Source: an uncultured Bacilli bacterium
Lineage (GTDB): Bacteria > Bacillota_I > Bacilli_A > RF39 > UBA660
Assembly (NCBI GenBank): GCA_947598395.1
Contig: CANQFG010000001.1
Span: 17,894-81,893, forward strand
DNA: 64,000 nucleotides
Reading direction: 5' to 3'
Under the pieces are notes generated by a model. It was not told the DNA's origin and searched no databases. It worked only from the letters and a program-made list of their open reading frames with translations. Below are positions 18,595-58,734 of the stretch, piece by piece (positions within the stretch are counted from its first letter, which is position 1; each line of letters begins with the position of its first letter). The translations under genes and the position numbers were made by a program.

Positions 18595-18681
18595 TTCTAA
18601 CCTCCTATAACCCAATTATATCATATTCTTAAAAATAGGAAGCATTTTTTTATAAATAATATTCCCGAATTATAGCCCTTA

Positions 18682-19491: not shown

Positions 19492-19575
19492 AATAAACAC
19501 CTCGAAGATATATCTTATCACAAATAAGGTATTATTTTAATATCTATTACATAAAAATTTAGTGAGGTGAAAAAA

Positions 19576-21063: not shown

Positions 21064-22845
21064 TTATTGTGGGGCTAAGACTAGGCGGAAGCTATGGTCT
21101 CGATTTGCGCCATTAATCCAAACAAAGTAGAACTGTCCAGCTAGAACACCATCTTTATAATCACCACCTCGAAAAAACCAAGGCAACGACTGGGAAGCAA
21201 AATTGGAAGCATCTGCATACCAACGATTGTGCCATCTACTTGATTTGTCTCCATCTTGATAATAATTAAACGGCCCAAGCTCACCGGTAGCATCTCCCAA
21301 TATCATTTTAGTATATCCATTTACTTCACTATCTTCATCATATACATCAAAAAATTTAGTACTTAAAGCACTTAACTCTTCTTTGCTAAACCCGCTGGAA
21401 TTTTTTTCTGATTCAGATACATAAGCTGCTACATATTCCCAAGACCCGCCAGACATATCATAGACACCCGTTATATTTCCCGTAGTACTAGCAGTTAACC
21501 CATTTGGCGTGTTCCATGTCGTATTAAATTCGGGGCCATCTCCATATTCGCCAAACATTTTACTTTGGTCTGTTGTTGGTAAAGCCGCATAACCCGTTTT
21601 ATATTGATCATTATTATTTATTGTTATTTCTTTATTTATCCCGAATATTGAATGTGATAGATAGGCAACTGCTCCCCATTCAGTGTTTTTCATCATATGA
21701 GATTCTAAATTTGTATTATATTCTTTAGCTGCTTCAAAGAAAGTTTTAATATTTGCTCCCCGCCACGAATATTCATTTGGTTTAACAACTATATTAGTTG
21801 ATTTACCATTAGTTTGAATGGCATTTTCTGCATTACTAGCATTTTTGTATCCTGTTTCAAATTTGCCTACCCAAAAGCCATCGACTTCAAATGATTTAAA
21901 TGCTGGATGGGTCATATATTCTCCGTTATTACAACTTCCTATATTTCCACTAGTCATTGGTGTTTCACACGATACGCCTTCGATATTTTCAGTGTCTTTA
22001 GTATCAAAAATTATTTCTATGGAATGGGCATTATATAATGGATTTGTTACATTTACATTCCATAAACGATATTTATATTTTGGTATCCACACAAACATTG
22101 CTTCAATATCGTTCATTTCAATTTGTTGATTATCTTCATAATTTTTTGATGGTTCACTTTTTAAAATAACGGCATTAGCCCATTTTTTATTGCAATAATC
22201 ATACCAATCAGGATTATCATTACTTACTTTTGTTATTGTTCCTTCATCATTTATTGTTACTGGTATTAATTTTGTTTCATCGCCTAAATTTGGTACTGCC
22301 ACACTCTTACATGAATCTTCAGCAATATACTTGTCTCCATCTTGATCTCTTTCTGTTGGTGTTACGGTTAGACTACACTTAAACTTTTCGTCAATTTCTT
22401 CTGTACTTACTTTCTTTAGTTCAACTGTTATTGTTCCTTTTCGACTCTCTTGGGCTTTTACTGTTAATTTCTCTGGACTCGATTTTATTTCCGTATATTT
22501 ACTAGTTTGATTTTCAGATACATTTCCATCATCTTCTACCCTTTTACAATCGATAGTTACAGTAGCATCATATTGTTTACTATTATTCATTACTCGATAT
22601 TCTAGTATACTTCTATCACCTATTGTACTTAGATCTTTTGTTTCAAATGTTATACTTTTCTTTTCATTTGTTTCAATTAATTCATTATTGACTACGCCAT
22701 CAAGTATAGCTTCACTAAAGTATACATCAAAGTCTTCGGTATCATATCCATAATTTATGGTACCTGTTATCGTTAAAGTTGTTGCTACAGCTGCAAAACC
22801 AATACTCATTATTACTAATGCGATTATTATTCCTCTTTTTTTCAT
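21064..22845 (-). CDS. Secreted or membrane-anchored protein with a C-terminal FGE/SUMF1-like domain, paralog B
   Basis: MKKRGIIIALVIMSIGFAAVATT signal-anchor. C-terminal NTEWGAVAYLSHS, GVYDMSGGSWEYVAAY, RGGDY...SFRLVLAP. Paralogous to 15286..17052. Confidence 0.75.
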   Translation of the reverse strand: MKKRGIIIALVIMSIGFAAVATTLTITGTINYGYDTEDFDVYFSEAILDGVVNNELIETNEKKSITFETKDLSTIGDRSILEYRVMNNSKQYDATVTIDCKRVEDDGNVSENQTSKYTEIKSSPEKLTVKAQESRKGTITVELKKVSTEEIDEKFKCSLTVTPTERDQDGDKYIAEDSCKSVAVPNLGDETKLIPVTINDEGTITKVSNDNPDWYDYCNKKWANAVILKSEPSKNYEDNQQIEMNDIEAMFVWIPKYKYRLWNVNVTNPLYNAHSIEIIFDTKDTENIEGVSCETPMTSGNIGSCNNGEYMTHPAFKSFEVDGFWVGKFETGYKNASNAENAIQTNGKSTNIVVKPNEYSWRGANIKTFFEAAKEYNTNLESHMMKNTEWGAVAYLSHSIFGINKEITINNNDQYKTGYAALPTTDQSKMFGEYGDGPEFNTTWNTPNGLTASTTGNITGVYDMSGGSWEYVAAYVSESEKNSSGFSKEELSALSTKFFDVYDEDSEVNGYTKMILGDATGELGPFNYYQDGDKSSRWHNRWYADASNFASQSLPWFFRGGDYKDGVLAGQFYFVWINGANRDHSFRLVLAPQ

Positions 22846-22882: not shown

Positions 22883-22912
22883 ATTGCACCCCCCCAGTTG
22901 CATTTTTTTCAA
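22883..22912 (-). promoter_or_regulatory. Promoter of FGE paralog B with a poly-G7 tract (C7 on the plus strand, 22889..22895) in the spacer
   Basis: Minus strand TTGAAA (22912..22907), then an 18-nt spacer AAAATGCAACTGGGGGGG, then TGCAAT (22888..22883). Otherwise nearly identical to promoter A. Confidence 0.6.
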
Positions 22913-31672: not shown

Positions 31673-32608
31673 CTATAATTCATATTCTAATAAGGCTTTA
31701 TAATTGGTCGGAAATCCCATCCGATCGAGAACCATTTCAATAGGAATGGTCTTCAATATGCCACTTAAGGCATCAATTTCAAATGATACTTCATTCATAA
31801 ACATGCGAAAGTCATCATTGCTCAACATATAACGCAGAATGAGGACGACGGAGAATAAATCCCCTTTACCATATATATATTCACCATTGATTATGGGAAT
31901 GTTTAAAGCTTCATGAAAGCTATTGTTGGGAATAACTTTCTGCGTCCGATGCTCAAATAGTATATCCTCATGGGCACACAAATTGCGGTAATTGGATAAT
32001 ATTGGCAAAAAGGTAAGCAAGCTTTCCGGTTCCAGCTTATATTCTTGGGCAATTTCGCGCTGATCACTCGGCTTCATAATCGTATATAATTCACTGGTTA
32101 TGCCAAACGATAAAACTTTGACGACGACCCATAGGGGAATATAGCCATAATTATTGATATAGTGTTTTGTCGCTTCATGTTGAGCACCATTGACGCGTAT
32201 TTGCCGCTTCATCTTCTTGAGCAAATCGTTGACTTGGCGGGCCTTATCTGGAGATTGGTTATAATTGCTAGGACGAAGATAGTCTTTTTCCTTATAACCA
32301 TACTTTTGCGATAGCGTATAGGAGAAAATACTTTTAGCATTATTTTCGATGATCAAAATATTTTTAAAAATGATATTCCGCAGTTGCCGATCGAAGGAAA
32401 ATAAGGCATAGAGTTCACGAAAATTCGCATTTTGACGAAACACCTTTGGATTCTTAGGATCCATTAAGAGGTGGCGATACCCCATTAAGAAAAAGTAATT
32501 TTCGCGTAAGATAATGCTCTTGGCATAGATATCATCATCAATTACTAATCCCTTTTCTTTGAGAATCGTAATCTGTTCATCTAAAGTTTTGAATATCTTC
32601 ATACTCAT
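31673..32608 (-). CDS. Abi_2 family (AbiD/AbiF-like) abortive-infection protein
   Basis: 311 aa with the Abi_2-type helical N-terminus (YFFLMGYRHLL...NFREL) as I recall it. Its own promoter TGTGATAGAAT, RBS AGGTGAAAG, and a terminator directly upstream of the promoter. Confidence 0.65.
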   Translation of the reverse strand: MSMKIFKTLDEQITILKEKGLVIDDDIYAKSIILRENYFFLMGYRHLLMDPKNPKVFRQNANFRELYALFSFDRQLRNIIFKNILIIENNAKSIFSYTLSQKYGYKEKDYLRPSNYNQSPDKARQVNDLLKKMKRQIRVNGAQHEATKHYINNYGYIPLWVVVKVLSFGITSELYTIMKPSDQREIAQEYKLEPESLLTFLPILSNYRNLCAHEDILFEHRTQKVIPNNSFHEALNIPIINGEYIYGKGDLFSVVLILRYMLSNDDFRMFMNEVSFEIDALSGILKTIPIEMVLDRMGFPTNYKALLEYEL

Positions 32609-34454: not shown

Positions 34455-35550
34455 CTAATTCTTCTTTCTTAAATAGGCTTCGATAAAGCCATCGAGATCA
34501 CCATCTAAGACTTTATCAGGGGCATTCGTCTCATAATTAGTTCGCAAATCCTTGACTAAACTATATGGTTCCAAGACATAATTGCGGATTTGACTGCCAA
34601 AATCGATGGCAGCACTGCCCTTCAAGTTACTTATTTGTCGATTTCGTTCATTTAATTCACGTTGATATAGTTTACTCTTTAAGACATTGAGGGCGATTTC
34701 CTTATTTTTGATTTGACTGCGTTCATTTTGACAAGTGACAACGATCCCCGTAGGAATATGGGTAATGCGCACGGCCGAATCCGTCGTATTGACGCCTTGC
34801 CCGCCATTGCCACTGCTGCGATAGACATCGACGCGCAGATCTTCATCGCGAATGACGATATCTTTAACTTCAGAAAACTCGGGAATGACATTGACAGCAG
34901 CAAAAGAGGTATGGCGCCGGGCATTGGCATCAAAGGGCGAAATGCGAACTAACCGATGAACGCCAATTTCGCCTTTTAAATAGCCATAGGCATAAGGGTG
35001 CACGACATGAATCAAGACGCTTTTGATGCCCGCTTCTTCGCCGAGGAGTTTATCGATAATCGTATATTTCATATCGTGTTTATCGAAATACATCGTATAC
35101 ATGCGCAAGAGCATATTGGCCCAATCGCAAGCTTCCGTTCCCCCGGCCCCCGGGTGTATTTCCAAATAGCAATTGGCTTGATCATATTCGCCATCTAACA
35201 AAGTTTTGAGTTCTAAAGCTTCGAGGTCCGAAGTGATCGCTTGAAGACTCAAAGCGATGTGCTCTTTGATCTCATCATCACTTTCCAGTTTTAACAATTC
35301 GATAATTTCTAACGATTCGGTTATCTTTTCCGCCAATTCATGATAATCAGCCGTTTCTTTGCGCAAGGTAATCAATTCGTTATTGAGCTTATTAGCATAT
35401 TCTTGATCTTGCCATATGCCCTCTTGATTTAATTGCCTTTCCAATTCGGCAATCTTTTTTTCGATAACGGCAACGTCAAAGTAACCTCCCGATCGTCTGA
35501 AGACGCTCATTCAAATTTTGATATTTTTGCTCTAAATCACTTAGTTCCAT
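34455..35550 (-). CDS. prfB: Peptide chain release factor 2, expressed through a programmed +1 ribosomal frameshift at CTT TGA C (TGA at 35478..35476)
   Basis: RBS AGGTGATGG then ATG at 35550. The 0-frame reads MELSDLEQKYQNLNERLQTIGRLL then TGA, preceded by an internal SD GGGAGG. The +1 frame continues DVAVIEKK... through the GGQ motif (SGGAGGQ region) to the stop at 34455. Confidence 0.93.
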
Positions 35551-35611
35551 ACCATCACCTTTAGCATTATTCTACCATGGAAATTTTTTTTAGTAAATTA
35601 AAAGACAAAGA

Positions 35612-36529
35612 TTAACCATGACGGCCACCGCCACTGCTATGGCCACCGCCAGATGAACCCGAATGCGAGGAACCAGTCCCCGATCCACTGGAACTCGAAG
35701 CTTGCAAATGCGATACGGTATGCGTCGAAAATAACGTCACCAACCGCTTGGAGATATTTACCGTATCTTCATTGCGATAAACACTCGCTTGCGTGGCAGG
35801 CCGAACCAACTTATGATTGCCAATCATCACCATCAATGAAACGCCACTAATGACGCAGCCGACGAGAACGGCAATCAAAAATGGAGGCTCATATTTGCGA
35901 ACTAAAAAACCCATGTCATTTAAGTAATAATCATCCATTGTCTTAGGAACGCCTTGTAAGTAATAATCTAGGTAATCGGCAATAAATTTCTTGATGCCAT
36001 CACCATAAACCTTACTCGTAAAATAGGGATAAATATCATCTAACGCCCGATCAGCTCTTGTTGCATCATAATACAATTGGGCTTCACCAAACATGTAGAC
36101 GTTGTAATAGGGATCTTCCTCATAAGTATTGCGCAAAAGGAGAACGCCGCTATAATATTGATCGTCTAAACCAAAGTCATTATAGTCATAAAAATCAGCA
36201 GCATAATCCTCATTTTCCGAATCATCGCTATATGGCAAATTAACCGCTACCAAGACGAATTCCATGCCCGTCACATTCTTGAAATTCATAATTTCATCAT
36301 AGACACTTTTTTCCTCTTTATCATTTAAGATATTGGCAAAATCATATATTTTTTCGGAAGCATTGACTAGTGGCGTATTTAAGACGGCATCGCGATTCTT
36401 ATCATTGATTACCCACTTTTTATTGACGCCATAATTATTTTCCGCCGTCCGTTCAAAGACCAAGGTACTAGCTTCGACATGAAGGCTAAAGAAGCTAAAA
36501 ATTATAATTCCCAAAATAAACTTTTTCAT
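35612..36529 (-). CDS. TPM-domain (YgcG/TLP18.3-like) membrane protein with a Gly/Ser-rich C-terminal tail
   Basis: Signal peptide, a TPM-like domain, one TM helix and a C-terminal SSSSGSGTGSSHSGSSGGGHSSGGGRHG. Coupled by TAATG overlap to the upstream Zn-ribbon gene. Confidence 0.6.
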   Translation of the reverse strand: MKKFILGIIIFSFFSLHVEASTLVFERTAENNYGVNKKWVINDKNRDAVLNTPLVNASEKIYDFANILNDKEEKSVYDEIMNFKNVTGMEFVLVAVNLPYSDDSENEDYAADFYDYNDFGLDDQYYSGVLLLRNTYEEDPYYNVYMFGEAQLYYDATRADRALDDIYPYFTSKVYGDGIKKFIADYLDYYLQGVPKTMDDYYLNDMGFLVRKYEPPFLIAVLVGCVISGVSLMVMIGNHKLVRPATQASVYRNEDTVNISKRLVTLFSTHTVSHLQASSSSGSGTGSSHSGSSGGGHSSGGGRHG

Positions 36530-37599
36530 TATCCAACTCCTAAAAGATACAAGGCATAGGATATACCGATAGTTAAAGCAAATCCGAAAACAAAGAGCAA
36601 GATGGCATAGAGGATAGCTTTACCCTTATCAAAAGGAATATCGCCGACGAATTCGCCCGTTTGACCATTCATGGCAAAGAGATACATCTTATCCCGATAT
36701 TTGACATTGACCATCCATATGGGCAAGAGAACATATTGATGGGCATTTTTCAGTACTTGTAAAGCATTATTGGCAATCGTCTTATTTTGGTAAGCTCCCA
36801 TATCAGCATAGAGATAATCGATGGTACTATTCATGGCACGTTTCGTCGCATTTTCCAAAGTAATCGCGGCATCGACATCGTATTTTAAAGCATAATAGCC
36901 CGCCAAATAGGCATAATTATAGGGAACTAATTCGGCAAAATTAAATGGTTCAAGGCTATTCATCACTTCATCATCAAAGCGCTTAGAGCCATCCATGGGA
37001 ATCCGCTCATAAGTCATCGCCGCCTCATAATCAAATTTATAAATATCCGTTTTCGTATAAATATATTCGCCACTACTCCACGTCGTTATTAGAGTACCCA
37101 TTGTCGTTAAACTTCCACCGATTTGGATATCGTGAAGCCAAAAGGGAATATAGATACCCGTAATCTTAGCAATATTTTGCGCATTATTGAAGCTTTTGGG
37201 CATTAATGGTCGACCCTTAGATAATTTTTTTAATGCTCTTTGGGCATTTTCCTTAGGTATTTTAAAGGGAATAATATACGAAGGGGCAAATTGATTAGAT
37301 AGGCGATTTTGAAGAATTGAGGCATTGCCACAATAGGGACAAAAAGTAGCAGCCGTATTTTCATCGGCAATAATCTCAGCACCACAATTGGAACAATGGT
37401 AATTAATATAATTATCGAAATTATCTTGCACATTAGTATCGGCAATACTGCTGACATTTTTATGCTTTTGCAATTCTTCTAAAGTAAATTCGTTATCACA
37501 ATATTCACATTTCCATTTACTGAGTTGAGCATTATAAAAAATGGGAGCACCACAACAAGGACATTGACTATCTAATACTTTATTTGCCATATCTGTCAC
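36529..37599 (-). CDS. Double zinc-ribbon protein with a C-terminal TM helix
   Basis: CPCCG...CEYC and CSNCG...CPYCG motifs and a C-terminal hydrophobic helix. Confidence 0.55.
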   Translation of the reverse strand: MTDMANKVLDSQCPCCGAPIFYNAQLSKWKCEYCDNEFTLEELQKHKNVSSIADTNVQDNFDNYINYHCSNCGAEIIADENTAATFCPYCGNASILQNRLSNQFAPSYIIPFKIPKENAQRALKKLSKGRPLMPKSFNNAQNIAKITGIYIPFWLHDIQIGGSLTTMGTLITTWSSGEYIYTKTDIYKFDYEAAMTYERIPMDGSKRFDDEVMNSLEPFNFAELVPYNYAYLAGYYALKYDVDAAITLENATKRAMNSTIDYLYADMGAYQNKTIANNALQVLKNAHQYVLLPIWMVNVKYRDKMYLFAMNGQTGEFVGDIPFDKGKAILYAILLFVFGFALTIGISYALYLLGVG

Positions 37600-37700
37600 C
37601 TACTATAAAAAGTATAACAAAAAAAAGCGGCTTTTGCACCACCTTTATAATATAGTTTTTTTATTGATAATTAGTAAAATATTGTTATATATTAATATAT

Positions 37701-38084
37701 TTATTCTTTAATATTATCGAGATCTCCCTTTAAAGTAATAACTCCCCAACCCTCTAATTCATCGCGAAAGGGCTCATAGATATCATTTAACAAGTAGACC
37801 TTTTTTCCATAATAATAGCCAAAGGCAATCTCGGCAAAAGTATTAGGTCCAATATAATTTTGAATTCCCATTCGTTCTTCATTGACGATGAGAACGACTT
37901 CATTTAGACCATTGATTATCCGATCCAAATGGGCCTTTGAAGCTATCTCTTTACTTTTTCCTTCGAGACATTCGATGGGCAAGAGCACTTTATAGCCCCG
38001 ATCTTCCAATTCATCTTTGACTTTTAAAATCTTATCTTTAACTTTCATGCTTCCACATAAGACGATATTTACCACAAAAATCAC
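37701..38084 (-). CDS. Nucleoside 2-deoxyribosyltransferase-like (SLOG/Rossmannoid) small protein
   Basis: IVLCGS N-terminal motif and GPNTFAEIAFGYYYGKKVYLL, which resembles the DSGTAFELGYAYALGKPV catalytic-Glu block of NDT-family proteins. Confidence 0.5.
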   Translation of the reverse strand: MIFVVNIVLCGSMKVKDKILKVKDELEDRGYKVLLPIECLEGKSKEIASKAHLDRIINGLNEVVLIVNEERMGIQNYIGPNTFAEIAFGYYYGKKVYLLNDIYEPFRDELEGWGVITLKGDLDNIKE

Positions 38085-38197
38085 ACTTCTTTAATCGCTA
38101 TCATAATTAAATAGTTTGGTTACAAGTTACTATCTTAACACCAATCATTAATGGTTGCAATAATGAGTGCATCAAAGAAATGATTTTTATTTTTTAT

Positions 38198-39229
38198 CTA
38201 CTTTCTTCCACCTAATATTAACCTATTTGCCAAGCTATTCTTCTTAATAATTTGGATGAGCAAAAGGGATATGCCAATAATCAAAATGGTTATCAATATA
38301 CAAATTAAGTAATTTATGTTCTTTAGATCGTGACAAATATACGGAATAGCTAATTCCATAAAGAAACTTTGAATAATATAGATGCCAAGGGTATTTTGAC
38401 CTAGATAACTTAAAGCTTTTAAAATTTTAGAGTGTAGTTTCCCCATAACAGCCTTTACTAAGGACAAAGTAAGCAAAGAACCGACAAGCCCCATAATGAT
38501 GCGATAAAGGCCAATCGCTAATTGATAAAAATTAATAGCTATCTTTTGCGAGTTAATATTAATAATGGAAAAACCATTGCCATAAATATAGGCATCGCGA
38601 TTGTAAAATAATATTAAAATGTTAAAAAGTATGAGGCTTAGCAGTAATACTTGACCCCCCCCCAGTTGTAGTTTTTCAAGTAGACATAACTTGTTAATAA
38701 TATAGCCGATGAAAAAATAAATATAGATAAATTTGATATTATTAAGTCCGGCAAAATCAGGGAGAATAAAGATGAATAAAAATCCAAAAAGATAGATAAA
38801 TTTATTATCATTAAACTTTTTATTGACGATGCTAATTATGATACTGGAGAATAAAATAGCCCACAAGAACCAAAGAAAACTTAGAAAACTTTTAACCAAA
38901 GAGATATCGACATGAAGGATAAACTTACTTATAAGGAAATAGATAAGAGATGAAGTAAATATTGGTATAAATAATGTCGTAATTTTATTCTTAATCAATT
39001 CTTTTAAGTCATATTTTTTTAAAGAATAATAGAAAAGATAACCACTGATCAGAGCAAATAATGGCATATGAAAACTATAGATAATCTTAAATAGGGGATT
39101 ATCAAAATATATTTCATTAGTAAAATAATAATAACCACTACCATATTGAATACTATGTCCAAATACGACTAAGATTATCGTTAATCCTTTTAATATATCT
39201 AATACGCGATTTCTCTTTAATTCTTGCAT
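38198..39229 (-). CDS. Acyltransferase family 3 (OafA/Oac-like membrane O-acyltransferase) with an in-frame G9 tract
   Basis: N-terminus VLDILKGLTIILVVFGHS and about 10 TM helices. The G9 tract (plus-strand C9, 38655..38663) encodes LQLGGGQV. Confidence 0.8.
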   Translation of the reverse strand: MQELKRNRVLDILKGLTIILVVFGHSIQYGSGYYYFTNEIYFDNPLFKIIYSFHMPLFALISGYLFYYSLKKYDLKELIKNKITTLFIPIFTSSLIYFLISKFILHVDISLVKSFLSFLWFLWAILFSSIIISIVNKKFNDNKFIYLFGFLFIFILPDFAGLNNIKFIYIYFFIGYIINKLCLLEKLQLGGGQVLLLSLILFNILILFYNRDAYIYGNGFSIININSQKIAINFYQLAIGLYRIIMGLVGSLLTLSLVKAVMGKLHSKILKALSYLGQNTLGIYIIQSFFMELAIPYICHDLKNINYLICILITILIIGISLLLIQIIKKNSLANRLILGGRK

Positions 39230-39291
39230 ATTGTACTCCTTATCATTCCATGATTATGCATTTTTTAAACCTAATTATATTATATAATGTT

Positions 39292-40176
39292 TTATGAACC
39301 AATCAACTTATTTTCATTAACTTGGTTTTGCAATAATTCCAATTCTTTAAGACTTTTATTATCTTTTAAGGCATCTATTTGTCTTCTTGCGGAATTATTT
39401 AATCTAATAAGTCTTTCTCTTTGTGGAACTTTTTCCTCAATTAATTCGGCATTTGTATTTTCTAAATTATTTAATATTACTAAATGAAGCAAATCAGTAT
39501 AATCTCTTATATTGCCCTTTTCAGCTAGTTCGGGATTTCTTTCACGCCACTCTTTTGAAGTCATTCCAAATAACGCGACATTTAATACTTCGGCTTCTTC
39601 GGCATACACGAATTGTTTTTGCTTTTCAGTTAAAGTTGGAACTATGCATTTCTTTACTGCATCGGTATGAACAATATAATTAACTTTCGATAGAAGTCTA
39701 GTGGCACTCCACTCAACTTTATATTGATAAGCTTCGTTCGTTTTTAATCTTTCAAATTCCGTTATTAAATATAATTTAAATTCGGGTGATAACCAACTAG
39801 CAAATTCAAAAGCTATATCTGGATGGGCAAATGTACCTTTACTATATTTTCCACTACTTGGAATTATACCAATAGCATTAAAATTTTTCTTCCATCTATT
39901 CGGAGTCATAGTAAATCTATTGTATGGAACTTCTTCAGCTTTAATTCTGTGGGATTCCACGGAATTAAAATTTTCATTATTGATTTCTTCCCATAGACTA
40001 TAATAATCAAAAGAATTCTTATTAGACATCCAATTTCTAATTACTCCAGACGGATCTTCAGAATTTGTATATTTTGCTAAATCGGTCAAAGAAATATAAT
40101 TAACATTTCCTACCCGCATTATTCCAATTTTGTTTTCTTTTACAATAATTTCAGTTGTCACTATATTTGTTTTCAT
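39292..40176 (-). CDS. KilA-N domain-containing protein
   Basis: YISLTDLAKY...IRNWMSNKNSFDYYSLWEEINNENF...GTFAHPDIAFEFASWLSPEFKLYLITEFERLK is the typical KilA-N family block. The start (MKTNIV, RBS GGGGGA) is uncertain and the track ORF extends to 40233. Confidence 0.75.
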   Translation of the reverse strand: MKTNIVTTEIIVKENKIGIMRVGNVNYISLTDLAKYTNSEDPSGVIRNWMSNKNSFDYYSLWEEINNENFNSVESHRIKAEEVPYNRFTMTPNRWKKNFNAIGIIPSSGKYSKGTFAHPDIAFEFASWLSPEFKLYLITEFERLKTNEAYQYKVEWSATRLLSKVNYIVHTDAVKKCIVPTLTEKQKQFVYAEEAEVLNVALFGMTSKEWRERNPELAEKGNIRDYTDLLHLVILNNLENTNAELIEEKVPQRERLIRLNNSARRQIDALKDNKSLKELELLQNQVNENKLIGS

Positions 40177-40234
40177 TTTATTTTCCCCCATTTCCATTTC
40201 CATTACTTTTTTATCGTATTTCCCAATGTACAAC

Positions 40235-41254
40235 TCATTTGCTTTCTATACGATTTGTTTCATTTAATAATCTATCAAAATCCGATACATAATTTCTATC
40301 TTGTATAACTTTATATTTTTCATATTCATTTTCGGCTTTTTGTACTGCTTGTTTATGAGAAATTGTACCTTTTCCCTCTAATACATTATAATGAAAAACT
40401 TTTAGTGCATTTTCAACTTCTTTTTTCCAATCTTCCATATACATGGCAATATTTCTCTCCGCATTATTTTCAGCTATATCTAAAAATAAGTTCACTAAAT
40501 TATTTAAATTTTTAATTTCTTTTTCATCTAAATAATTTTTAGCAATAGTAATATCTGATTTCAGTATTTTACCATCAGGTGATTTTTCCCAATTGGTAAG
40601 CCCCATATTTTCTTTTGTCGAATCAACTCGGTTATAAACTATTTCGGCAGCAGTTTGTCCAGTAATGGCATAATGAAATTTATTTTGAATTGTTTTATAA
40701 AATTCCATTGCAATTTCATCATTTTTATCATAGTCTATTGAACATTCGGCAAAAATATCGGTGACTTTTTGATAAAACATTCTTTCACTTGTACGGATTA
40801 ATTTAATTCTTTCAAGTAATCTTTGAAAATATTCTTGATCTCTCTTGTTTGCTTTCATAAATCTTTCATCATTTAAAGCAAAACCTTGAATCATATAATC
40901 CTTAATTATTTTATTTGCCCAAGTTCTAAACTTGATGGCTTTTTTAGAATTAACTCTAAAGCCAATAGAGATAATCATATCTAAATTATAATACTTTGTA
41001 TTATAAGATTGTTTTCCATCATTACCCATATGTTCCATTTTGGAACATGTGCTTTTTTCTTCAAGTTCACCATCATTGTATATATTATTAATATGTTTAG
41101 TAATCGCTGGCCTTTTAACACTAAAAAGCGTTGCTAAAGCTTCGGTGTTTAGCCAAACATCTTCATTTTCAAGTAACACTTCTACCTTAATATTTCCTTC
41201 TTCATCATTATAAAATAAAATATTTTTTTCATTTCCGATCAATCTATCTTTCAC
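40235..41254 (-). CDS. rhuM: RhuM family virulence/defence-island protein
   Basis: NIKVEVLLENEDVWLNTEALATLF...YYNLDMIISIGFRVNSKKAIKFRTWANKIIKDYMIQGFALNDERF matches the RhuM N-terminal domain. Confidence 0.8.
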   Translation of the reverse strand: MKDRLIGNEKNILFYNDEEGNIKVEVLLENEDVWLNTEALATLFSVKRPAITKHINNIYNDGELEEKSTCSKMEHMGNDGKQSYNTKYYNLDMIISIGFRVNSKKAIKFRTWANKIIKDYMIQGFALNDERFMKANKRDQEYFQRLLERIKLIRTSERMFYQKVTDIFAECSIDYDKNDEIAMEFYKTIQNKFHYAITGQTAAEIVYNRVDSTKENMGLTNWEKSPDGKILKSDITIAKNYLDEKEIKNLNNLVNLFLDIAENNAERNIAMYMEDWKKEVENALKVFHYNVLEGKGTISHKQAVQKAENEYEKYKVIQDRNYVSDFDRLLNETNRIESK

Positions 41255-41303
41255 ACTTACACCTCCTCTAAAATTTTTCTTTTATATTAATATTTTAATA
41301 TAA

Positions 41304-41837
41304 TTATTTATTAACTAAAAACATCTTTAAATTATAAGAAGAATTTTTACTTTTCCTTCTATTGCAATCTTTGCACAGCATTTGCAAATTACTTTTGCCA
41401 AGCTCATCGCCAACATACATCCACGGAATTATATGGTCTAATTCTGATGAATCAAGATCAATATCTTTTTTACAAATATTACATTTACGACTTTGATTTT
41501 GTAGTAATTCAGATCTAATAGCTAAGTCATAAGATATTCGATGGTTATTCTTTGTAAAATATGCATAAAAATATTTATACATTAATTGGCTCTCGGCTTC
41601 GCTTAAACTACACTTTATTCTTTCAAACACTATCTTATGTGTTGTTAAAGCTTTGTCAGAACTGTTAAGAAATCTCTGCTTTACTTCCTTTTTATATTCA
41701 GAATCGCCCATCTCTTGAACCATCGTTTCAAAAATACTTATTAACAAACATTTATAGCTTTCATGCAAATATTTTTGAAGATCAATATTATTCCTTTCTA
41801 ATAAAGAGGTTATTGGTGTATCAACTACATCTATCAC
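41304..41837 (-). CDS. HNH endonuclease
   Basis: CNICKKDIDLDSSELDHIIPW...NLQMLCKDCNRRKS His-Me finger motif. Its start overlaps the stop of the DGQHR gene. Confidence 0.8.
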   Translation of the reverse strand: MIDVVDTPITSLLERNNIDLQKYLHESYKCLLISIFETMVQEMGDSEYKKEVKQRFLNSSDKALTTHKIVFERIKCSLSEAESQLMYKYFYAYFTKNNHRISYDLAIRSELLQNQSRKCNICKKDIDLDSSELDHIIPWMYVGDELGKSNLQMLCKDCNRRKSKNSSYNLKMFLVNK

Positions 41838-43021
41838 TATAATAAGCCACCTATTTGTTCGCTATTGACATAAGCTAACACTTTTTGAATATCACTTTTT
41901 GCTAATGCTATCGTTGCGCCTTCTCCTCTAAATGCTAAGCTTCTTTCGATAGTTTCTTCATTATCTTCGCCTTTATCATCACAAAAAACGCATTTAATAT
42001 TTTCAAGTTTTAAGGCCTCTGGATACTTGGAAATTAGATTTTTAAAATTGTCTTTTAACAATTTTTCTTTATTATTAATCAACTTATCACATATTTCTGG
42101 AAATACATACATTAAATATCTTAACCCACTTATTTTTGTAATAGTATCGGATTCAGGTTGTTGAAATGAAACATTAGATAATTCCTCCCACGCAGATAAG
42201 TAATTATCAATTATAATAACAAAATTATTAACGGCTTCTCTTTCATTTTGATAAACAGGAATAACTCTATTATCATAAAACTTTTTAACTCCATAAAGTT
42301 TAAATATTTTTGACATTTGAGTTTCCTTATATCCCTTTTTAATTTTATCCGCCCCAAACATTATTTTTTGATATAAAGGTGATGAACTTTCACGATTAAT
42401 AGCATCTAATAAGTCATAAGTTACTTCATCATCACCAATCAGCATTCCTAATGACTTTTTTATGTATCTTAAGAGATTTGTCTCAACCTTATCTTGCTTT
42501 TCATTAGTAACCATAAATAATTCTTTTCGCTCATTATCGGTTTGATTACTGAATACGGAAAAATTCATTTCGTAAATTATATTAGAATCAAAATTAGGAT
42601 CGATATAATCCTCATCAAAAGCGATAATACGATGTTGGCCATCTATAATTTCTAATTCATTTTCATGTTCGACAATTTCTTCTTCGGTTTCAGGAAACAT
42701 AATATAGTATTGTGTAATAGTTTTTTTTGTTCCATTTTCCTCTATAAATATTTCCTCACTTCGAACCTTTAGATCCCCTTTAACATTAATAATTGGTGAA
42801 TTAGGGATCAACCCTAATGACTTTTTATCCTCAATTTTTGTTTTTCCTGCAACATATTCACTAATTTCTCTTACTTTTTTCTCTATCCATGGTCGTTGAA
42901 CATCTTGCTTCTCTCCAGCAGTATATTTTCTTCTTAATTTTGCCACCATTCTTGGATCTGCAACCATAGAATAAAAATCTACGTCCTTTTGTTGAATTTT
43001 ATGAACTATAATTTTTTTCAT
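41837..43021 (-). CDS. DGQHR-domain protein (DndB-like, ParB/sulfiredoxin fold)
   Basis: ELEIIDGQHRIIAFDEDYI motif at 394 aa. Its own promoter TTGACA-17-TATATT and RBS AGGGAGAAG. Very AT-rich. Confidence 0.7.
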   Translation of the reverse strand: MKKIIVHKIQQKDVDFYSMVADPRMVAKLRRKYTAGEKQDVQRPWIEKKVREISEYVAGKTKIEDKKSLGLIPNSPIINVKGDLKVRSEEIFIEENGTKKTITQYYIMFPETEEEIVEHENELEIIDGQHRIIAFDEDYIDPNFDSNIIYEMNFSVFSNQTDNERKELFMVTNEKQDKVETNLLRYIKKSLGMLIGDDEVTYDLLDAINRESSSPLYQKIMFGADKIKKGYKETQMSKIFKLYGVKKFYDNRVIPVYQNEREAVNNFVIIIDNYLSAWEELSNVSFQQPESDTITKISGLRYLMYVFPEICDKLINNKEKLLKDNFKNLISKYPEALKLENIKCVFCDDKGEDNEETIERSLAFRGEGATIALAKSDIQKVLAYVNSEQIGGLL

Positions 43022-43044
43022 ACTCTTCTCCCTTCAATGCATAT

Positions 43045-43073
43045 AATATATCGTAAAAAGATTTTATTGTCAA
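43045..43073 (-). promoter_or_regulatory. SigmaA-type promoter of the DGQHR-HNH operon, overlapped by AGATCTT palindromic repeats
   Basis: Minus strand TTGACA ATAAAATCTTTTTACGA TATATT. The palindromes TAAGATCTTA, AAATCTTAT and TAGATCTTG lie at 43063..43125. Confidence 0.5.
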
Positions 43074-43295
43074 GATCTAATTTAATTTATTAAAAATAAG
43101 ATTTATTTAATAAGATCTTATTTTTAAGATCGTAATAAAGTTTGCCCACCCCGAAAGCATTTATAAAATTAACTTAGTTACACCTTATTTTTTCAAATTA
43201 ATTTTGGTTCTAGTTTTTATAATGGTTTATATTTTTTACACATTTAAAGCGTATTTGAACAATCATATTTTTACATTGCACAAAAATTGAATCAT

Positions 43296-43336
43296 AAAAA
43301 AAACTCGCAATCCCATTATTTATGGGATTTTGCGAG
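43296..43336 (-). terminator. Rho-independent terminator of secA (bidirectional hairpin)
   Basis: CTCGCAAAATCCCATAAATAATGGGATTGCGAG followed by an 8-nt U-run on the minus strand. Confidence 0.8.
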
Positions 43337-43337
43337 C

Positions 43338-45839
43338 TTACTTACCACAACAGTTCTTATATTTCTTACCAGACCCACAAGGACATGGATCGTTGCGTCC
43401 TACTTTCTTTTCATTTTTTATAGGAACGCTTTTGGCTTTTTGTTTGCCATCATTGGCTACCCCTTCCATTGGACGAGCTTGGAAATTTTGTTTGACCTCC
43501 ATCTTTAATAAGAACGTAGCAACGGAGGCATCAATGTTATCTTGCATCGCCTCAAACATCTCATAACCCTCAAGAGCGTAAGCTTGTAATGGATTATTTT
43601 GACCATAGCCGCGAAGGCCAATTCCTTCGCGAAGTTGATCCATATCGGAGATATGTTTTACCCACGCTTCATCAATTACACGAAGCGAAGTATGCTTTTC
43701 AAAATCGCGAACCAATTCTTCGGGAATAACCGCAATTTTTTCTTCATAATCATTGATAACGGCTTCACTGATAATCGCAAATACTTCATCATCGGTCTTG
43801 CCCTTTAAATCTTTAGCTTCTAATTTCGATTTTTTAACTAAATTATGATTGACCGTATCGACAATACCTTCTAAGTCACTGTCGGTTAAGTATCCTTCCG
43901 GTTCAATATGGGAATTGATCAAGGCATCGATGTGGTCCTTTATCATATCGAGAATGATTGGATGAATATCCTCAGTGTCGAGAATTTCATTGCGGCGTTC
44001 ATAAATAATCTTTCGTTGTTCGGATACGACGTTATCGTAATCAAGCAAATTTTTCCGCAAGTCATAGTTATTGCCCTCGACCTTCTTTTGAGCCGATTCG
44101 ACGGATTTGGTAAACATCTTGCTGCGAACTTGTTCCATTTCATCTAAGCCAAGCGATTGAACCATACCTTTGATACGATCAGCTCCAAATCGGCGCATTA
44201 AATCATCTTCAAAGGAAATAAAGAATTGGGAATATCCAGGATCGCCTTGACGACCAGCCCGACCACGCAACTGATTATCGATACGCCGCGATTCGTGTCT
44301 TTCCGTTCCGATGACACATAGGCCACCTAATTCGGCAACACCTTCGCCAAGTTTGATATCGGTACCACGACCAGCCATATTAGTAGCAATCGTAACGGCG
44401 CCCTTTTCGCCAGCTTTGGCTATAATTTCTGCTTCACGAGCATGGTTTTTGGCATTTAAGACCTCATGTTTAATGCCAACTTTTTCGAGCATCCGACTCA
44501 ATTTTTCATTTGATTCTACGGAGATCGTACCGACGAGAATAGGTTGTCCCGTAGCATGAATCTTTTTGATAAATTCGACGATAGCTTTATATTTACCCGC
44601 TTCCGTCGCATACATTAAATCGCTCATATCGACACGAATACAAGGTTTATTCGTTGGAATTTCGATAACATACATATTATAGATATCTCTAAATTCCTCT
44701 TCTTCGGTCTTAGCAGTTCCCGTCATACCGGAAATTTTAGCATACATTCTAAAGAGGTTTTGGAATGTAATCGTGGCCATCGTCCGCGTCTCTTCATTGA
44801 TCTTAACGCCTTCTTTGGCTTCAATAGCTTGATGCAAACCATCGGAAAATTGACGTCCTTCCATCAACCGACCGGTAAAAGGATCGACGATAACGACTTT
44901 TTCGGCCCCATCGACGACATAGTCGACATCGATTTTCATACCATAGTTGGCCTTTAAGGCTTGATTGATATGGTGAATGAGGATGGAGTTATCGACATCA
45001 TATAGATTTGTCAATTTAAAGTACTTCTCGATCTTTTTCGAACCAGCTTCGGTTAAAACGACACTTTTAGTCTTCGCATCGACGGTATAGTCATCTTCTT
45101 CGGATAATAATTTGACCGCCTTATCAGCTTCGACATAGAGATTAGCCGCATTGACCCGGCCTCCACTAATGATGAGTGGCGTCCGCGCTTCATCGATGAG
45201 CATCGAGTCAACTTCGTCTAAAATGACATAGTTTAAGCCCCTTTGAACGCGATCTTCAGGACGAACGACCATATTATCGCGAAGATAATCAAAGCCGATT
45301 TCATTATTTGTGGAATAGGTAATATCCGCATTATATACTTCCCTTTTAGCTTCGGGCGTCATATCATGCAAATTAACGCCAACGCTTAAACCTAAGAATT
45401 CATAAATTGGACGCATCCATTCGGCATTACGACTCGTCAAGTATTCATTGACGGTGACAACATGTACGCCCTTTCCCGTCAAAGCATTTAAATACGCCGG
45501 TAACGTCGTCGTAATAGTCTTACCTTCACCAGTTTTCATTTCGGCAATATTGCCAAAATGTAAGGCAAGGCCACCTAGTAATTGTACATAGTAAGGACGT
45601 TCACCGATCTTACGATAGGCAACCTCTCTAACTGCCGCAAAAGCGGGAACAATAATCGCCTCATCATTGATCGTCTTACCATTTTCGAGCTCTTTTTTTA
45701 AAGCATCAGTCGTACTGGCAAGTTCTTCATCACTCATGTGTGAATATTCATCTTCCAATGCGACGATCTTATCTGCAATCTTTTTAAATCTCTTTAATTC
45801 TTTATATTCGGTATCTATTAAACCTTTTAATATGCCCAT
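43338..45839 (-). CDS. secA: Preprotein translocase ATPase SecA
   Basis: 833 aa with DEAD-like motor motifs and a C-terminal Zn-binding CPCGSGKKYKNCCG. Confidence 0.97.
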   Translation of the reverse strand: MGILKGLIDTEYKELKRFKKIADKIVALEDEYSHMSDEELASTTDALKKELENGKTINDEAIIVPAFAAVREVAYRKIGERPYYVQLLGGLALHFGNIAEMKTGEGKTITTTLPAYLNALTGKGVHVVTVNEYLTSRNAEWMRPIYEFLGLSVGVNLHDMTPEAKREVYNADITYSTNNEIGFDYLRDNMVVRPEDRVQRGLNYVILDEVDSMLIDEARTPLIISGGRVNAANLYVEADKAVKLLSEEDDYTVDAKTKSVVLTEAGSKKIEKYFKLTNLYDVDNSILIHHINQALKANYGMKIDVDYVVDGAEKVVIVDPFTGRLMEGRQFSDGLHQAIEAKEGVKINEETRTMATITFQNLFRMYAKISGMTGTAKTEEEEFRDIYNMYVIEIPTNKPCIRVDMSDLMYATEAGKYKAIVEFIKKIHATGQPILVGTISVESNEKLSRMLEKVGIKHEVLNAKNHAREAEIIAKAGEKGAVTIATNMAGRGTDIKLGEGVAELGGLCVIGTERHESRRIDNQLRGRAGRQGDPGYSQFFISFEDDLMRRFGADRIKGMVQSLGLDEMEQVRSKMFTKSVESAQKKVEGNNYDLRKNLLDYDNVVSEQRKIIYERRNEILDTEDIHPIILDMIKDHIDALINSHIEPEGYLTDSDLEGIVDTVNHNLVKKSKLEAKDLKGKTDDEVFAIISEAVINDYEEKIAVIPEELVRDFEKHTSLRVIDEAWVKHISDMDQLREGIGLRGYGQNNPLQAYALEGYEMFEAMQDNIDASVATFLLKMEVKQNFQARPMEGVANDGKQKAKSVPIKNEKKVGRNDPCPCGSGKKYKNCCGK

Positions 45840-56338: not shown

Positions 56339-57157
56339 CTAGCTTATAATATTATTTTTGTTTAATACTCTTTTTAGTAACAATTGACGAGTTTCATTAT
56401 CAGCATCTAACTTTTGCTTCATTTGTTCCTCTTGTTGTTTAGCTACTCGTCGATAATTTTCTTCTATTTGCTCAGCTCTCGATGAAATAAAATCTATTTT
56501 TAATCTTTCTATCTCATCTGATGAAAGGACTTTTAAACTATGTTCGATTTTGTATGAAATCAATTCATCAATAAAATCTTTAACGTAAGAAAATTTACCA
56601 AATTTAACACGTTGCTTTAAAGTATGAGTGCCAGTATTCACACAATAAAATTGTATTTTGCTTTCGAGTATATCGTCTGACAAAATGATTGCTCTTCCAT
56701 CTTTTACAATTGAATTAAGATTTTCACCACTATCATCAGAGTACCAATTACATCTACTATCTTCGGCAATAACTATTCTTGGATGTTTGGTAACTTTAGT
56801 TTTTTGCTTATCAAATACAAGCACTTCTACTTCAGTTGTATGATATTCTGCTTCTTGATAAATGTAATTTATACCTTCAAAGGTTCTCATTAAACTAGCT
56901 ATAGCCCTTCCGATCTTTTCAGCATCAAAAGATGAATAAGATACTATTAATCTACAATACGTATCAGTTCGACGATTGTGTTCATCTAACTCTTGATATT
57001 TTGACTTGCCTAATTCATCATACTTTAAGACAACTTGTTTTTTTGCTTCTTCAATTTGCTCTAATTCAGCTTGTTTTTCATCTTCTACACTTTGGATTTC
57101 AGATAAACAACGATTTTTTACTATTCTTAACTTTTGTAATTCATCAATAAAATTCAT
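56339..57157 (-). CDS. Hypothetical coiled-coil protein located immediately 3' of ssrA
   Basis: Coiled-coil N- and C-termini around a central globular region, no recognisable motif. Confidence 0.45.
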   Translation of the reverse strand: MNFIDELQKLRIVKNRCLSEIQSVEDEKQAELEQIEEAKKQVVLKYDELGKSKYQELDEHNRRTDTYCRLIVSYSSFDAEKIGRAIASLMRTFEGINYIYQEAEYHTTEVEVLVFDKQKTKVTKHPRIVIAEDSRCNWYSDDSGENLNSIVKDGRAIILSDDILESKIQFYCVNTGTHTLKQRVKFGKFSYVKDFIDELISYKIEHSLKVLSSDEIERLKIDFISSRAEQIEENYRRVAKQQEEQMKQKLDADNETRQLLLKRVLNKNNIIS

Positions 57158-57407
57158 GAGAAACCTCCCTTACAATAATATTTTACTATATTTTTCAATG
57201 AAGTTTAATAACTATCTAATACATTATATAAAAATATACACACGCATTAACTTATCAAATGTGTTTTCTAAATATATCAATTTAGACTATAAAAATTATA
57301 GTATATTAAAACTTGAACCACAAAAGTCCGAGCGATTGATTTCTATTATCAATAAAGGGAAAGTATTAACTTTTCCAAATATCAACGAACAAACAGAAAG
57401 TTTGTTT

Positions 57408-57768
57408 AATACTACATTGGTGGAGTCGAGCGGAGTTGAACCGCTGTCCAAGTTACTCTTCTAAATAGCGTCTACAAGTTTAGTTAGAATTATCATCTTC
57501 ACAAATACAAAAGTATCTAACTTACTAATATTTGCTATCCTATAGGTTTTCGTTTAAATTGGCTAGGATACAATTTAAATATATTCTATATTTATGAACC
57601 GATATATTACCTATAGAAAAATAATATACCAGCGCTCTTTCACCAATTAGGCGAATGCTAGAGCAGTATTATAATTTTTTCCAGTTAATTTTAAAACTGT
57701 GCCACTTAGGATTGGCTACCACCTGCAACTAAGTCAAGACTATAACCTGTCGAAACCAGTGCGACCCC
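57408..57768 (-). ncRNA. ssrA: tmRNA (ssrA), 361 nt
   Basis: The 5' end is GGGGTCGCACTGGTTTCGACAGG. The 3' end is GGTTCAACTCCGCTCGACTCCACCA, a T-arm plus acceptor with a G3-U70 wobble. The tag ORF GGA AAA AAT TAT AAT ACT GCT CTA GCA TTC GCC TAA encodes (A)GKNYNTALAFA. Confidence 0.85.
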
Positions 57769-57808
57769 AGATATAGCTAATGATAACACACTTGTCGGCC
57801 TTTTTCAA

Positions 57809-58105
57809 CTATTCATCTTCCGGCAATTTGATAATTATCTCGCCATCTTGGGAATATAAAAATCTTTCACGAGCATATTTGGCAACATATTCGGGATCTT
57901 GAAGCTTGACAACTTCACCTTCTAAGACATCCTCATTATCGACGAGTTTCTCATACTTCGTTTCGAGTTCGGCCCGCAATTTACGATTATTATAGATTTG
58001 TTTCCACGAATTAAAACATGAAAAAGTAAGTAGACTAATTAGGCCACATAAAATACAAGCATATAATATTAAACGATAACGATACTTTTTCATATTGTAT
58101 GCCAC
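57809..58105 (-). CDS. divIC: Septum formation initiator (DivIC/FtsB family)
   Basis: TM helix plus coiled coil plus a C-terminal YVAKYARERFLY block. Confidence 0.75.
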   Translation of the reverse strand: MAYNMKKYRYRLILYACILCGLISLLTFSCFNSWKQIYNNRKLRAELETKYEKLVDNEDVLEGEVVKLQDPEYVAKYARERFLYSQDGEIIIKLPEDE

Positions 58106-58151
58106 TCCTCATATTAAATATAGCAAATATTTTTATGGATTTATAGCATCA

Positions 58152-58669: not shown

Positions 58670-58734
58670 ATTTTGATTCCTCCTATTAAATATCTATTTT
58701 TTTTCATAAAAAAAATTCACGATTTGTGAATTTT

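Follow-up and report, generated by a model that had tools for sequence, protein, structure and literature searches.

What are eight genes doing between secA and prfB? In Bacillus subtilis, hpf (yvyD), secA and prfB follow one another directly. The DNA studied here, 64,000 nucleotides (nt) from an uncultured Bacilli bacterium of the RF39 lineage (contig CANQFG010000001.1; hereafter the window, by which we mean the whole stretch), keeps the order hpf-secA ... prfB and the programmed +1 frameshift of prfB. Unlike in B. subtilis, however, secA and prfB are separate transcription units 7.8 kb apart. Eight open reading frames (ORFs), all on the minus strand like every other gene across 31–52 kb of the window, separate secA from the ATG of prfB at 35550 (Table 1). 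A first-pass annotation had listed the same eight genes and interpreted them as one insertion of about 7.5 kb that splits a conserved linkage. Our analysis confirms all eight genes as minus-strand ORFs and suggests a different history. We think that the interval represents, in this genome, an integration hotspot shared across the clade, a reading to which we assign a probability of roughly 0.68.

In the relatives the last ~42 nt of secA, which encode the C-terminal zinc-binding SEC-C motif, are the attachment (att) core for phage-type tyrosine integrases. Each integrating element restores the 3′ end of secA, and elements pile up in tandem between secA and prfB. They are 1–9 kb long; some resemble integrative mobilizable elements (IMEs), which have an integrase and in some cases a MobV relaxase, and many are integrase-less islets of one to three genes. 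Under our reading, the AT-rich 5.1 kb of the window would be a compacted array of cargo modules that such elements carry elsewhere, in the order secA core and terminator, DGQHR-HNH, RhuM, KilA-N and an acyltransferase with a poly-G tract. Integrase, arm sites and distal repeats would have been deleted from this array, which would hence now be immobile.

The hotspot becomes visible only by comparison. We collected 80 loci (L001–L080) in a SecA scan, with one genome per GTDB species. All of them are from metagenome-assembled genomes (MAGs) of uncultured gut bacteria of the ‘Bacilli/Tenericutes’ type, and the highest SecA identity to the window is 84% (Firmicutes bacterium CAG:582 and similar genomes). 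Upstream, the order SecG-RNase R-SmpB-LytTR two-component system-CSD-hpf-secA is conserved, and synteny stops at the secA stop codon. The secA-prfB linkage assumed in the first-pass annotation is not conserved in this clade: prfB is found within 10 kb of secA in 6 of the 80 loci, and in 4 of the 26 loci with a full 10 kb of downstream sequence (22 are without it). Among the related loci examined, secA and prfB are adjacent only in L049, where a spacer of 158 bp remains, an ‘empty’ site. In five loci (L006, L027, L031, L034 and L066) prfB is 1.8–6.3 kb away from secA and the cargo in between is unrelated. One of them, L006, shares with the window the far-side order prfB-YitT-...-Abi_2-HtrA-YchF, whereas the cargo in the gap differs. 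Hence, the secA...prfB frame is ancestral and the content between the two genes varies. The empty site and the gene order of L006 support the earlier proposal that the AT-rich genes were acquired horizontally and broke an ancestral adjacency. Upstream of prfB, homology among the relatives begins only at the coding sequence.

The genes behind secA are as variable as one would expect of a hotspot. Downstream of secA the relatives carry 377 ORFs, 262 of which are singletons. Among 150 of these ORFs, matches to 121 Pfam families were found; phage integrase, KilA-N, RhuM and bPH are most frequent, followed by HTH regulators, thioredoxins, radical SAM proteins, C5 methylases, NUDIX and WYL proteins. 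We also asked whether relatives carry the window's genes at the same place, which would have argued against an insertion. None of them shares the set of eight, and the closest relatives (SecA identity 83–84%) have no island genes within 7–10 kb downstream of secA, except for a 46%-identical RhuM in L005. Finally, 15 of the 80 contigs end within 300 bp past secA and 23 within 1 kb, versus 7 on the upstream side. Such breaks are the expected effect of strain-variable repeats on assembly, and the hotspot explains why they are so frequent right past secA in these genomes.

The most direct evidence comes from the 3′ end of secA itself. Its last 30–45 nt recur as direct repeats 1–9 kb downstream, sometimes together with the terminator. 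Searches with blastn-short identified an extra core copy in 11 loci; with an nhmmer profile of the core, extra copies were found in L091 and in 19 of the 57 loci whose downstream sequence is 1 kb or longer. All of these copies are direct repeats located downstream of secA, and L004, L057 and L058 have two extras each. TGTGG, the second Cys codon of the SEC-C motif, marks the exact start of the repeat, which ends with the stop codon. Some elements from different species share the 5′ flank of their downstream cores, which is CTATAWATACTGGAGT-like in four loci (L001, L019, L063 and L077) and GATAATATGGGAGT in L008 and L061. In one subgroup the motif TAGATAMGTTTT, often doubled, is found ~60–100 nt 3′ and ~125–170 nt 5′ of the cores. 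Judged by placement, this is the layout expected for arm-type integrase sites.

The enzymes that such sites call for are present as well. The largest cargo cluster consists of tyrosine integrases, whole or in fragments, from 13 loci. They are intact and 120–250 bp past secA in L002, L039, L047 and L069, and fragmented in eight further loci. These integrases are of phage type, ~35% identical to those of Paenibacillus phages, and match the generic Pfam models Phage_integrase and Phage_int_SAM_3, which do not single out IntI-type enzymes. The units bounded by cores are 1–9 kb long and AT-rich; most contain one to three genes (the islets are mostly 1–4 kb) and most are integrase-less. Integrase-bearing units resemble IMEs. 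The unit in L004, for example, carries an integrase, an HTH regulator and an FtsX/ABC transporter, and the one in L069 an integrase, a ParB-like protein and a SpaA/thioester adhesin.

Together, the relatives show a known pattern: site-specific integration at the 3′ end of a conserved gene, and tandem accretion. Integrative and conjugative elements (ICEs), IMEs and cis-mobilizable elements (CIMEs) accrete in this way at the 3′ ends of housekeeping genes: ICESt1, ICESt3 and CIMEs do so at fda of Streptococcus thermophilus, and IMEs of streptococci at rpsI, rpmG, guaA and other genes. As in those cases, the relatives have a tyrosine integrase, a rebuilt 3′ end of a conserved gene, flanking direct repeats and tandem arrays. 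Their integrase-less units share ends with integrase-bearing ones, and at least one MobV relaxase is present. There are also differences. Here the elements insert at the SEC-C-coding end of secA, and their hosts are gut Bacilli that have not been cultured. Many units are only 1–2.5 kb long with a single gene, and the array in the window is without any repeats or mobility genes. We found no report of the secA 3′ end as an att site in a full-text literature search; the SEC-C-coding end of secA is a previously unreported recurrent landing site for mobile elements. The first-pass annotation had left open whether the insertion was old or acquired by recombination. The mechanism can now be named more specifically, since the secA 3′ end is a recurrent site-specific target in the relatives, although the window itself is scarless. 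For metagenomes of these abundant uncultured gut Bacilli, the secA 3′ flank is a simple starting point when one looks for their accessory and candidate defence genes.

One could go further and argue that the secA 3′ end is a gene-capture platform. Core- and arm-bounded cassettes, mostly with a single gene and no integrase, would be inserted, stacked and passed between species in trans by an integrase that a minority of elements encode. The platform would be functionally integron-like but tied to the coding end of an essential gene, and DGQHR-HNH would be a new split ParB-fold/HNH defence pair resembling restriction enzymes. We regard this combined proposal as tentative, and on balance rather doubtful. 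Unlike in integrons, the repeats are copies of the coding sequence of the secA end and not attC-like imperfect palindromes.

Some relatives carry unusual genes at or near this site. In L047 the region 8182–13799 directly behind secA encodes two integrases: the first is followed by a 224-aa ORF and a DnaD/RepO-like protein, the second by a Mob_Pre (MobV) relaxase. A second core was not detected within 10 kb in L047, and the region may be a larger or composite mobilizable element. A core-bounded unit of 2.45 kb in L001 (12499–14952) has as its sole cargo a 546-aa class I tRNA synthetase that resembles methionyl-tRNA synthetase (MetRS), just 31% identical to the MetRS of the window (62100–63635). 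In L059 the C-terminal part of SecA is duplicated at the distal end of an 8.7-kb core-bounded unit (18480–19634); the duplicate has 384 aa, shares 59% identity with the SecA of the window and precedes a 141-nt repeat that comprises the end of secA and its terminator. The spacer between hpf and secA is 1.5–3 kb instead of ~0.2 kb in L008, L011, L021, L024, L028, L050 and L066. Hence, the 5′ side of secA may accept insertions too.

How much of the interval in the window belongs to the hotspot? The first-pass annotation placed an AT-rich block at 39.3–43.0 kb. The low GC content holds, at 0.277 for 38198–43336 versus 0.354 for the whole window; the start does not, because the acyltransferase gene (also 0.277) is within the AT-rich block, which hence begins at 38.2 kb. 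A GC content close to the window mean would have spoken against an import. Instead, the 5.1-kb segment is the lowest of all segments of this size in the 64 kb (0.3% are equally low or lower). GC at third codon positions is 0.17–0.29 in the five genes of the block versus about 0.35–0.46 in the flanking core genes. The three genes next to prfB have a GC content of 0.35–0.40, indistinguishable from core genes. Composition thus splits sharply near 38.2 kb (0.277 vs 0.364), and the interval consists of two compositional parts, not one: instead of a single ~7.5-kb insertion we see a mosaic of a 5.1-kb foreign array and 2.6 kb of host-like genes.

The composition of the array also fits a source among the relatives. 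A GC content of 0.28 agrees with their genomes (0.25–0.32), their secA genes (0.28–0.33) and their islets (0.21–0.29), and not with the secA of the host (0.41). The core genes of the window are far GC-richer than those of all sampled related species, as the secA values illustrate. Imports from relatives are therefore conspicuous in the window.

The same data bear on the possibility that the eight genes arrived together between secA and prfB, in one insertion of a single block of ~7.8 kb. Such an event would account for eight co-oriented genes between two conserved anchors and for a gene set that is found in no relative. It is very unlikely, however, for the following reasons. First, a single block should not be split in composition at ~38.2 kb. 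Second, DGQHR-HNH, RhuM and KilA-N are each found on their own, and the species and contexts differ. Third, homology to L091 stops exactly at the HNH stop codon. Fourth, the Zn-ribbon/TPM and nucleoside 2-deoxyribosyltransferase (NDT)-like families are ordinary chromosomal genes elsewhere.

This last point deserves some detail. Homologues of the Zn-ribbon protein number more than 6,700 (top non-self identity 57%). An overlapping TPM gene always comes directly after the Zn-ribbon gene, although the chromosomal contexts are unrelated; one of them is in a rabbit-gut MAG of the same clade. In the window a terminator-like hairpin (37623–37646) divides this pair from the gene of the 127-aa NDT-like protein. 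A search of the PDB with the sequence of the latter gave no significant match. Its AlphaFold2 model (pLDDT 93.4) has nucleoside 2-deoxyribosyltransferases, MilB, DNPH1 and TIR/ThsB as top PDB matches (probability 1.0, TM 0.57–0.66), so that the label ‘NDT-like’ from the first reading of the sequence is valid at the fold level. The family comprises ~123-aa proteins in stable chromosomal neighbourhoods elsewhere. Their host-like GC content favours a view of the three genes next to prfB as ordinary chromosomal genes; that they are missing from the secA flanks of the relatives means just that their position is not conserved. They are probably ordinary residents of a variable interval and not recent imports.

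The genes of the AT-rich part behave differently. DGQHR-HNH, RhuM and KilA-N (not the acyltransferase) recur behind secA in other species, where their identity exceeds that of SecA. KilA-N is 71–85% identical to the first gene past secA in L008, L019, L021, L026, L032, L067 and L075 (SecA 63–72%), and in L008 and L019 it is part of core-bounded units with integrase fragments. RhuM is 80–85% identical to the copies in L061, L078 and L079 (SecA 61–64%). In L061 and L078 these copies are in core-bounded units beside integrase fragments; L079 has an integrase fragment, and no second core was detected there. Between the window and L091, DGQHR is 92% and HNH 70% identical, compared to 61% for SecA, and DNA identity is 81% for the module versus 67% for secA. 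That DGQHR, RhuM and KilA-N are 80–92% identical (KilA-N 81–85%) where SecA is 61–69% identical points to horizontal transfer.

One could still argue that the interval is native and vertically inherited, and that GC is low for functional reasons, because membrane or regulatory genes can be AT-rich. There are indeed additional AT-rich stretches in the window (17–24, 47–49 and 56–59 kb), the first of which holds ordinary genes (DcuC-like, MBL, LemA, UDG and RlmH), and the three genes next to prfB do appear native. Nevertheless, we strongly disfavour this explanation and consider it barely credible. The similarity of RhuM, KilA-N and DGQHR across species is far above that of SecA, island genes are found in att-bounded islets (L008, L019, L061 and L078) or beside integrase fragments (L079), and the relatives with 83–84% SecA identity are without them in the 7–10 kb downstream of secA, apart from the RhuM of L005 mentioned above.

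L091 is the locus that ties the window most closely to the hotspot. There, secA is followed by a 719-aa ORF, an internal core with terminator, DGQHR-HNH, a 73-aa ORF and, last, a third core that is degenerate. The secA end of the window and its terminator are homologous to this internal core and terminator, and the homology extends from the core to exactly the stop codon of HNH. L091 carries two nearly identical arm sequences of ~140 nt, and neither of its units has an integrase. About 80 nt past the secA stop codon, the window aligns with the doubled arm motif of L091 in degenerate form, which suggests decay.

Several observations weigh against a site-specific origin of the array in the window or against parts of our interpretation. 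A second secA core is absent from the window, whether one searches with a degenerate pattern (up to 3 mismatches), blastn-short or nhmmer profiles of the core and of the core plus its 5′ flank; the core profile matches solely at the genuine secA end (E 7e-10). The first-pass annotation saw no integrase or transposase, and tblastn with 19 integrase sequences agrees with it, as no integrase remnant was found in the 64 kb (best E 0.13). Direct repeats at the boundaries, which the annotation had suggested looking for, are missing: a search for direct and inverted repeats across 34.3–44.0 kb gave only short AT-rich chance matches. The attL and attR flanks of the relatives match the island in coding regions only, and the arm motif TAGATAMGTTTT is not above chance expectation in the window. 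The acyltransferase has no counterpart at any related locus. Contigs with identical SecA, Hpf or YitT are from the same strain and one project and carry the identical island. The comparison loci are mostly MAG contigs, in which repeats and strain mixtures can distort assembly. Defence roles of the cargo are based on PADLOC ‘candidate’ models and domain analogy, and KilA-N, which adjoins an integrase in L008 and L019 and matches a regulator family (PHROG 2657, annotated as transcriptional regulator), could serve the control circuitry of the element itself. Because the window is without diagnostic scars, we infer the site-specific origin of its array by homology. We also compared the junction between RhuM and KilA-N with the att regions of the relatives and found no att remnant, and there is no tRNA or known RNA within 34–47 kb that could be an integration target.

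Given this lack of scars, it is worth considering that an already decayed array was imported by homologous recombination through its flanks (secA on one side, prfB or a neighbour on the other) after transformation or conjugation from a relative that carried it, with no site-specific step in this lineage. A window with no att repeat, integrase or arm site, and with tight module junctions of 49–62 bp, is what this process would leave behind. It would also fit that the secA 3′ end and terminator were co-inherited with DGQHR-HNH, at ~79–81% DNA identity to L091 versus 67% for the rest of secA. However, the formation of the array in the donor would be left unexplained and would still need the att mechanism of the relatives. 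No recombination breakpoint has been demonstrated inside secA or prfB, and the host-like GC of the three prfB-side genes places the right junction at ~38.2 kb and not at prfB. Hence, we think that this route is unlikely, although it deserves serious consideration for the last step.

We therefore return to the integration hotspot as the preferred explanation. The island starts directly past an intact secA and its terminator, and the relatives are occupied at the equal position. Its composition is deviant, gene content is different in every related locus, and L049 provides the empty site. A recombinase gene and flanking direct repeats are not found in the window. Since integrase and att repeats are missing, we call the array a decayed product of the hotspot and not an element. 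Its own biology is ordinary: it is a fixed, decayed accessory array.

Could the AT-rich genes instead be what is left of a prophage or a phage satellite, similar to a phage-inducible chromosomal island (PICI), that inserted past secA and was then stripped of its structural and replication genes? KilA-N, Bro-N/RhuM and HNH proteins are typical phage accessory genes, and KilA-N falls into a phage protein family, as described above. KilA-N and RhuM have relatives at the DNA level in Streptococcus satellite phages, Staphylococcus phage EW and Wolbachia WO. The integrases of the relatives are of phage type, and DGQHR-HNH is found beside a prophage-like integrase, an S24 repressor and a replication module in L099 and L100. 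Yet the window encodes no capsid, terminase, lysis, primase or repressor genes. Of the features that define PICIs and prophages (integrase, master repressor, replication module, packaging or structural genes) it has none, and only accessory-type genes are shared. Moreover, the islets of the relatives are mostly 1–4 kb with one to three genes, and one element with a MobV relaxase is IME-like and not satellite-like. A phage remnant is hence quite improbable.

The first module of the array is DGQHR-HNH. The DGQHR protein belongs to TIGR03187 (68.9 bits; cutoff 58.85). Its motif is found in the context IIDGQHRII, and D127-G-Q-H-R131 is invariant in 37 homologues. The start of HNH overlaps the stop of DGQHR, and the two form a conserved, translationally coupled pair. 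Apart from the positions behind secA in the window and L091, the pair is found in several other settings. In L092 it belongs to a restriction/defence cluster that includes Mrr, AlwI and a D12 methyltransferase, a clostridial genome has it adjacent to spoIVA (L093–95), L099 and L100 provide the prophage-like context described above, and in L101 its neighbour is an IS110 element. The TTGACA promoter and AGATCT boxes upstream of DGQHR are kept in the window, L091, L092 and L093. These boxes are palindromic and repeated around the promoter (window 43060–43135; L091 9890–9960) in four unrelated contexts, which suggests an operator for some regulator, or autoregulation.

The fold of the DGQHR protein is ParB-like, with Z scores to BrxU and SspE of just 3.8–3.9, and PDB searches with its sequence gave no significant match. 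GmrSD, BrxU and SspE are type IV restriction enzymes with a DUF262 ParB-like domain and a DUF1524 His-Me nuclease (PMC4619093; PMC3632139). DGQHR-HNH similarly combines a ParB/Srx fold that carries a DGQ(H/Q)R motif with an HNH-type nuclease, and occurs in defence islands and near mobile elements. By analogy, a ParB-fold sensor or nucleoside triphosphatase could direct a separate HNH nuclease against foreign, possibly modified, DNA, in a layout like that of a split GmrSD/BrxU-type restriction enzyme. Unlike in these enzymes, the domains are encoded by separate overlapping genes, the first is TIGR03187 DGQHR/DndB-like and not DUF262, the second is PF01844 and not DUF1524, and the pair is known from sequence. 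GmrSD proteins have DUF262 with DGQQR plus DUF1524; here Pfam reports a weak DndB and an HNH match, and the motif is DGQHR. The pair is therefore analogous to GmrSD and not a member of it.

Dnd and Dpd systems are the other obvious comparison. The DGQHR protein matches DndB (20.7 bits, below the cutoff), DpdB (39 bits; cutoff 300) and DGQHR_dnd_1 (28.8 bits; cutoff 450) weakly and far below the family cutoffs. Unlike in these systems, no dndACDE/FGH or dpdA/C–K genes are nearby, and the only conserved partner of DGQHR is the HNH nuclease. With such scores, and with HNH, RhuM and secA as neighbours, the protein does not belong to Dnd or Dpd.

RhuM and KilA-N may also be involved in defence. PADLOC assigns RhuM to PDC-S05 (4e-134) and KilA-N to PDC-S22 (1e-105), both candidate families; matches to DpdB and PtuB-like proteins are weak, and the scan detected no validated defence system in the window. 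Based on these matches, both could be single-gene candidate defence or abortive-infection proteins. BstA is a prophage-encoded KilA-N protein that causes abortive infection (PMC8585504). Like BstA, the KilA-N of the window is a single gene borne by mobile elements, with an N-terminal KilA-N DNA-binding domain and an uncharacterized C-terminal region. Unlike BstA, it matches only PDC-S22 in PADLOC, and its hosts are of Gram-positive and not Gram-negative type.

On a larger scale the locus resembles the defence islands and hotspots flanked by core genes that have been described for E. coli, Pseudomonas, Vibrio and Serratia (PMC12629846; bioRxiv 10.1101/2024.01.28.577318). Variable genes sit between fixed core genes, candidates (PDC-S05 RhuM, PDC-S22 KilA-N, DGQHR-HNH, Fic, C5 methyltransferases) are present, and non-defence cargo is mixed in. 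It differs in that no experimentally validated defence system is found in the window and that the cargo of the relatives is largely unrelated to defence (NUDIX, thioredoxin, ABC transporters, GNAT, the MetRS paralogue). What the hotspot does offer is three compact, experimentally uncharacterized modules that are exchanged between species: DGQHR-HNH, RhuM (PDC-S05) and KilA-N (PDC-S22).

The last gene of the array, the acyltransferase, resembles O-acetyltransferases of surface glycans. Its G9 tract is in frame and codes for LGGGQ. Length variants were not found; the four same-strain contigs all have G9. The tract possibly makes the modification of a surface glycan phase variable. Other runs of at least seven G or C in the window are a G8 (17096–17103) and a G7 (22889–22895), and nothing else. 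Each sits in the spacer of a near-identical promoter-like sequence, TTGAAAAA..GCAAyTG(7-8)TGCAATACAAT, ~45 nt upstream of an ORF on the minus strand (15286–17052 and 21064–22845). The two ORFs are paralogues of 588 and 593 aa, 61% identical, without a Pfam match and with a hydrophobic N-terminus. The G8 and G7 sites are candidate phase-variable promoters for surface proteins.

Table 1. Genes and signals from secA to prfB, in the direction of transcription; positions refer to the window.
Feature	Position	Strand	Evidence or remark
secA, left anchor	43338..45839	-	full set of SecA Pfam domains; synteny with relatives
secA last ~42 nt, CGSGKKYKNCCGK-stop, end of SEC-C motif	43338..43382	-	single copy in the window; the putative att core, a direct repeat in relatives
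secA intrinsic terminator, GCTCGCAAAATCCCAT...ATGGGATTGCGAG + T run	43296..43337 (hairpin + T-run 43309-43329)	-	directly 3′ of the stop codon
DGQHR-HNH operon promoter, TTGACA-17-TATATT, 11/12 matches, AGATCT-type boxes	43045..43135	-	conserved in L091, L092, L093
DGQHR-domain protein, ParB/Srx-fold N-terminal domain, first gene of two-gene module	41837..43021	-	TIGR03187
HNH endonuclease, second gene of module	41304..41837	-	Pfam HNH 8e-11; motif D-H...N...N
RhuM family, Bro-N-like N-terminus	40235..41254	-	E 2e-100; PADLOC candidate PDC-S05
KilA-N-domain protein	39292..40176 (longer ORF start 40233)	-	start 40176 chosen by homology; PADLOC candidate PDC-S22
Acyl_transf_3 membrane O-acyltransferase, in-frame G9 at 38655-38663	38198..39229	-	E 3e-31
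NDT-like 127-aa protein	37701..38084	-	AlphaFold2 fold match; no Pfam match
Zn-ribbon protein	36529..37599	-	overlaps TPM gene
TPM-domain protein	35612..36529	-	Pfam E 3e-15
prfB, right anchor, with own promoter	34455..35597	-	PCRF + RF-1 domains; +1 frameshift site

The signals at the two anchors are as first annotated. The strong terminator of secA lies directly past its stop codon, and prfB, starting at 35550, has its own promoter-like site, TTTACT-17-TAGAAT with an upstream TG, at 35597–35569. The recoding site of prfB (GGGAGG-TTA-CTT-TGA-C at 35490–35475) has what a programmed +1 frameshift requires, the PCRF and RF-1 body is in the +1 ORF 34455–35510, and the site is invariant across 7 aligned loci.

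Four genes past prfB, the window carries an Abi_2 (AbiD/F-like) gene (31673–32608). L006 has it at the equivalent position with 65% identity, so that it looks like a stable resident and not like a member of the variable interval. Further along the window, the gene for tmRNA is at 57418–57768 on the minus strand, with the tag GKNYNTALAFA. Its flanks (56339–59007) hold small or familyless AT-rich ORFs with a GC content of 0.23–0.34. tmRNA genes are classical integration sites and, given these AT-rich flanks, the region may be a second islet.

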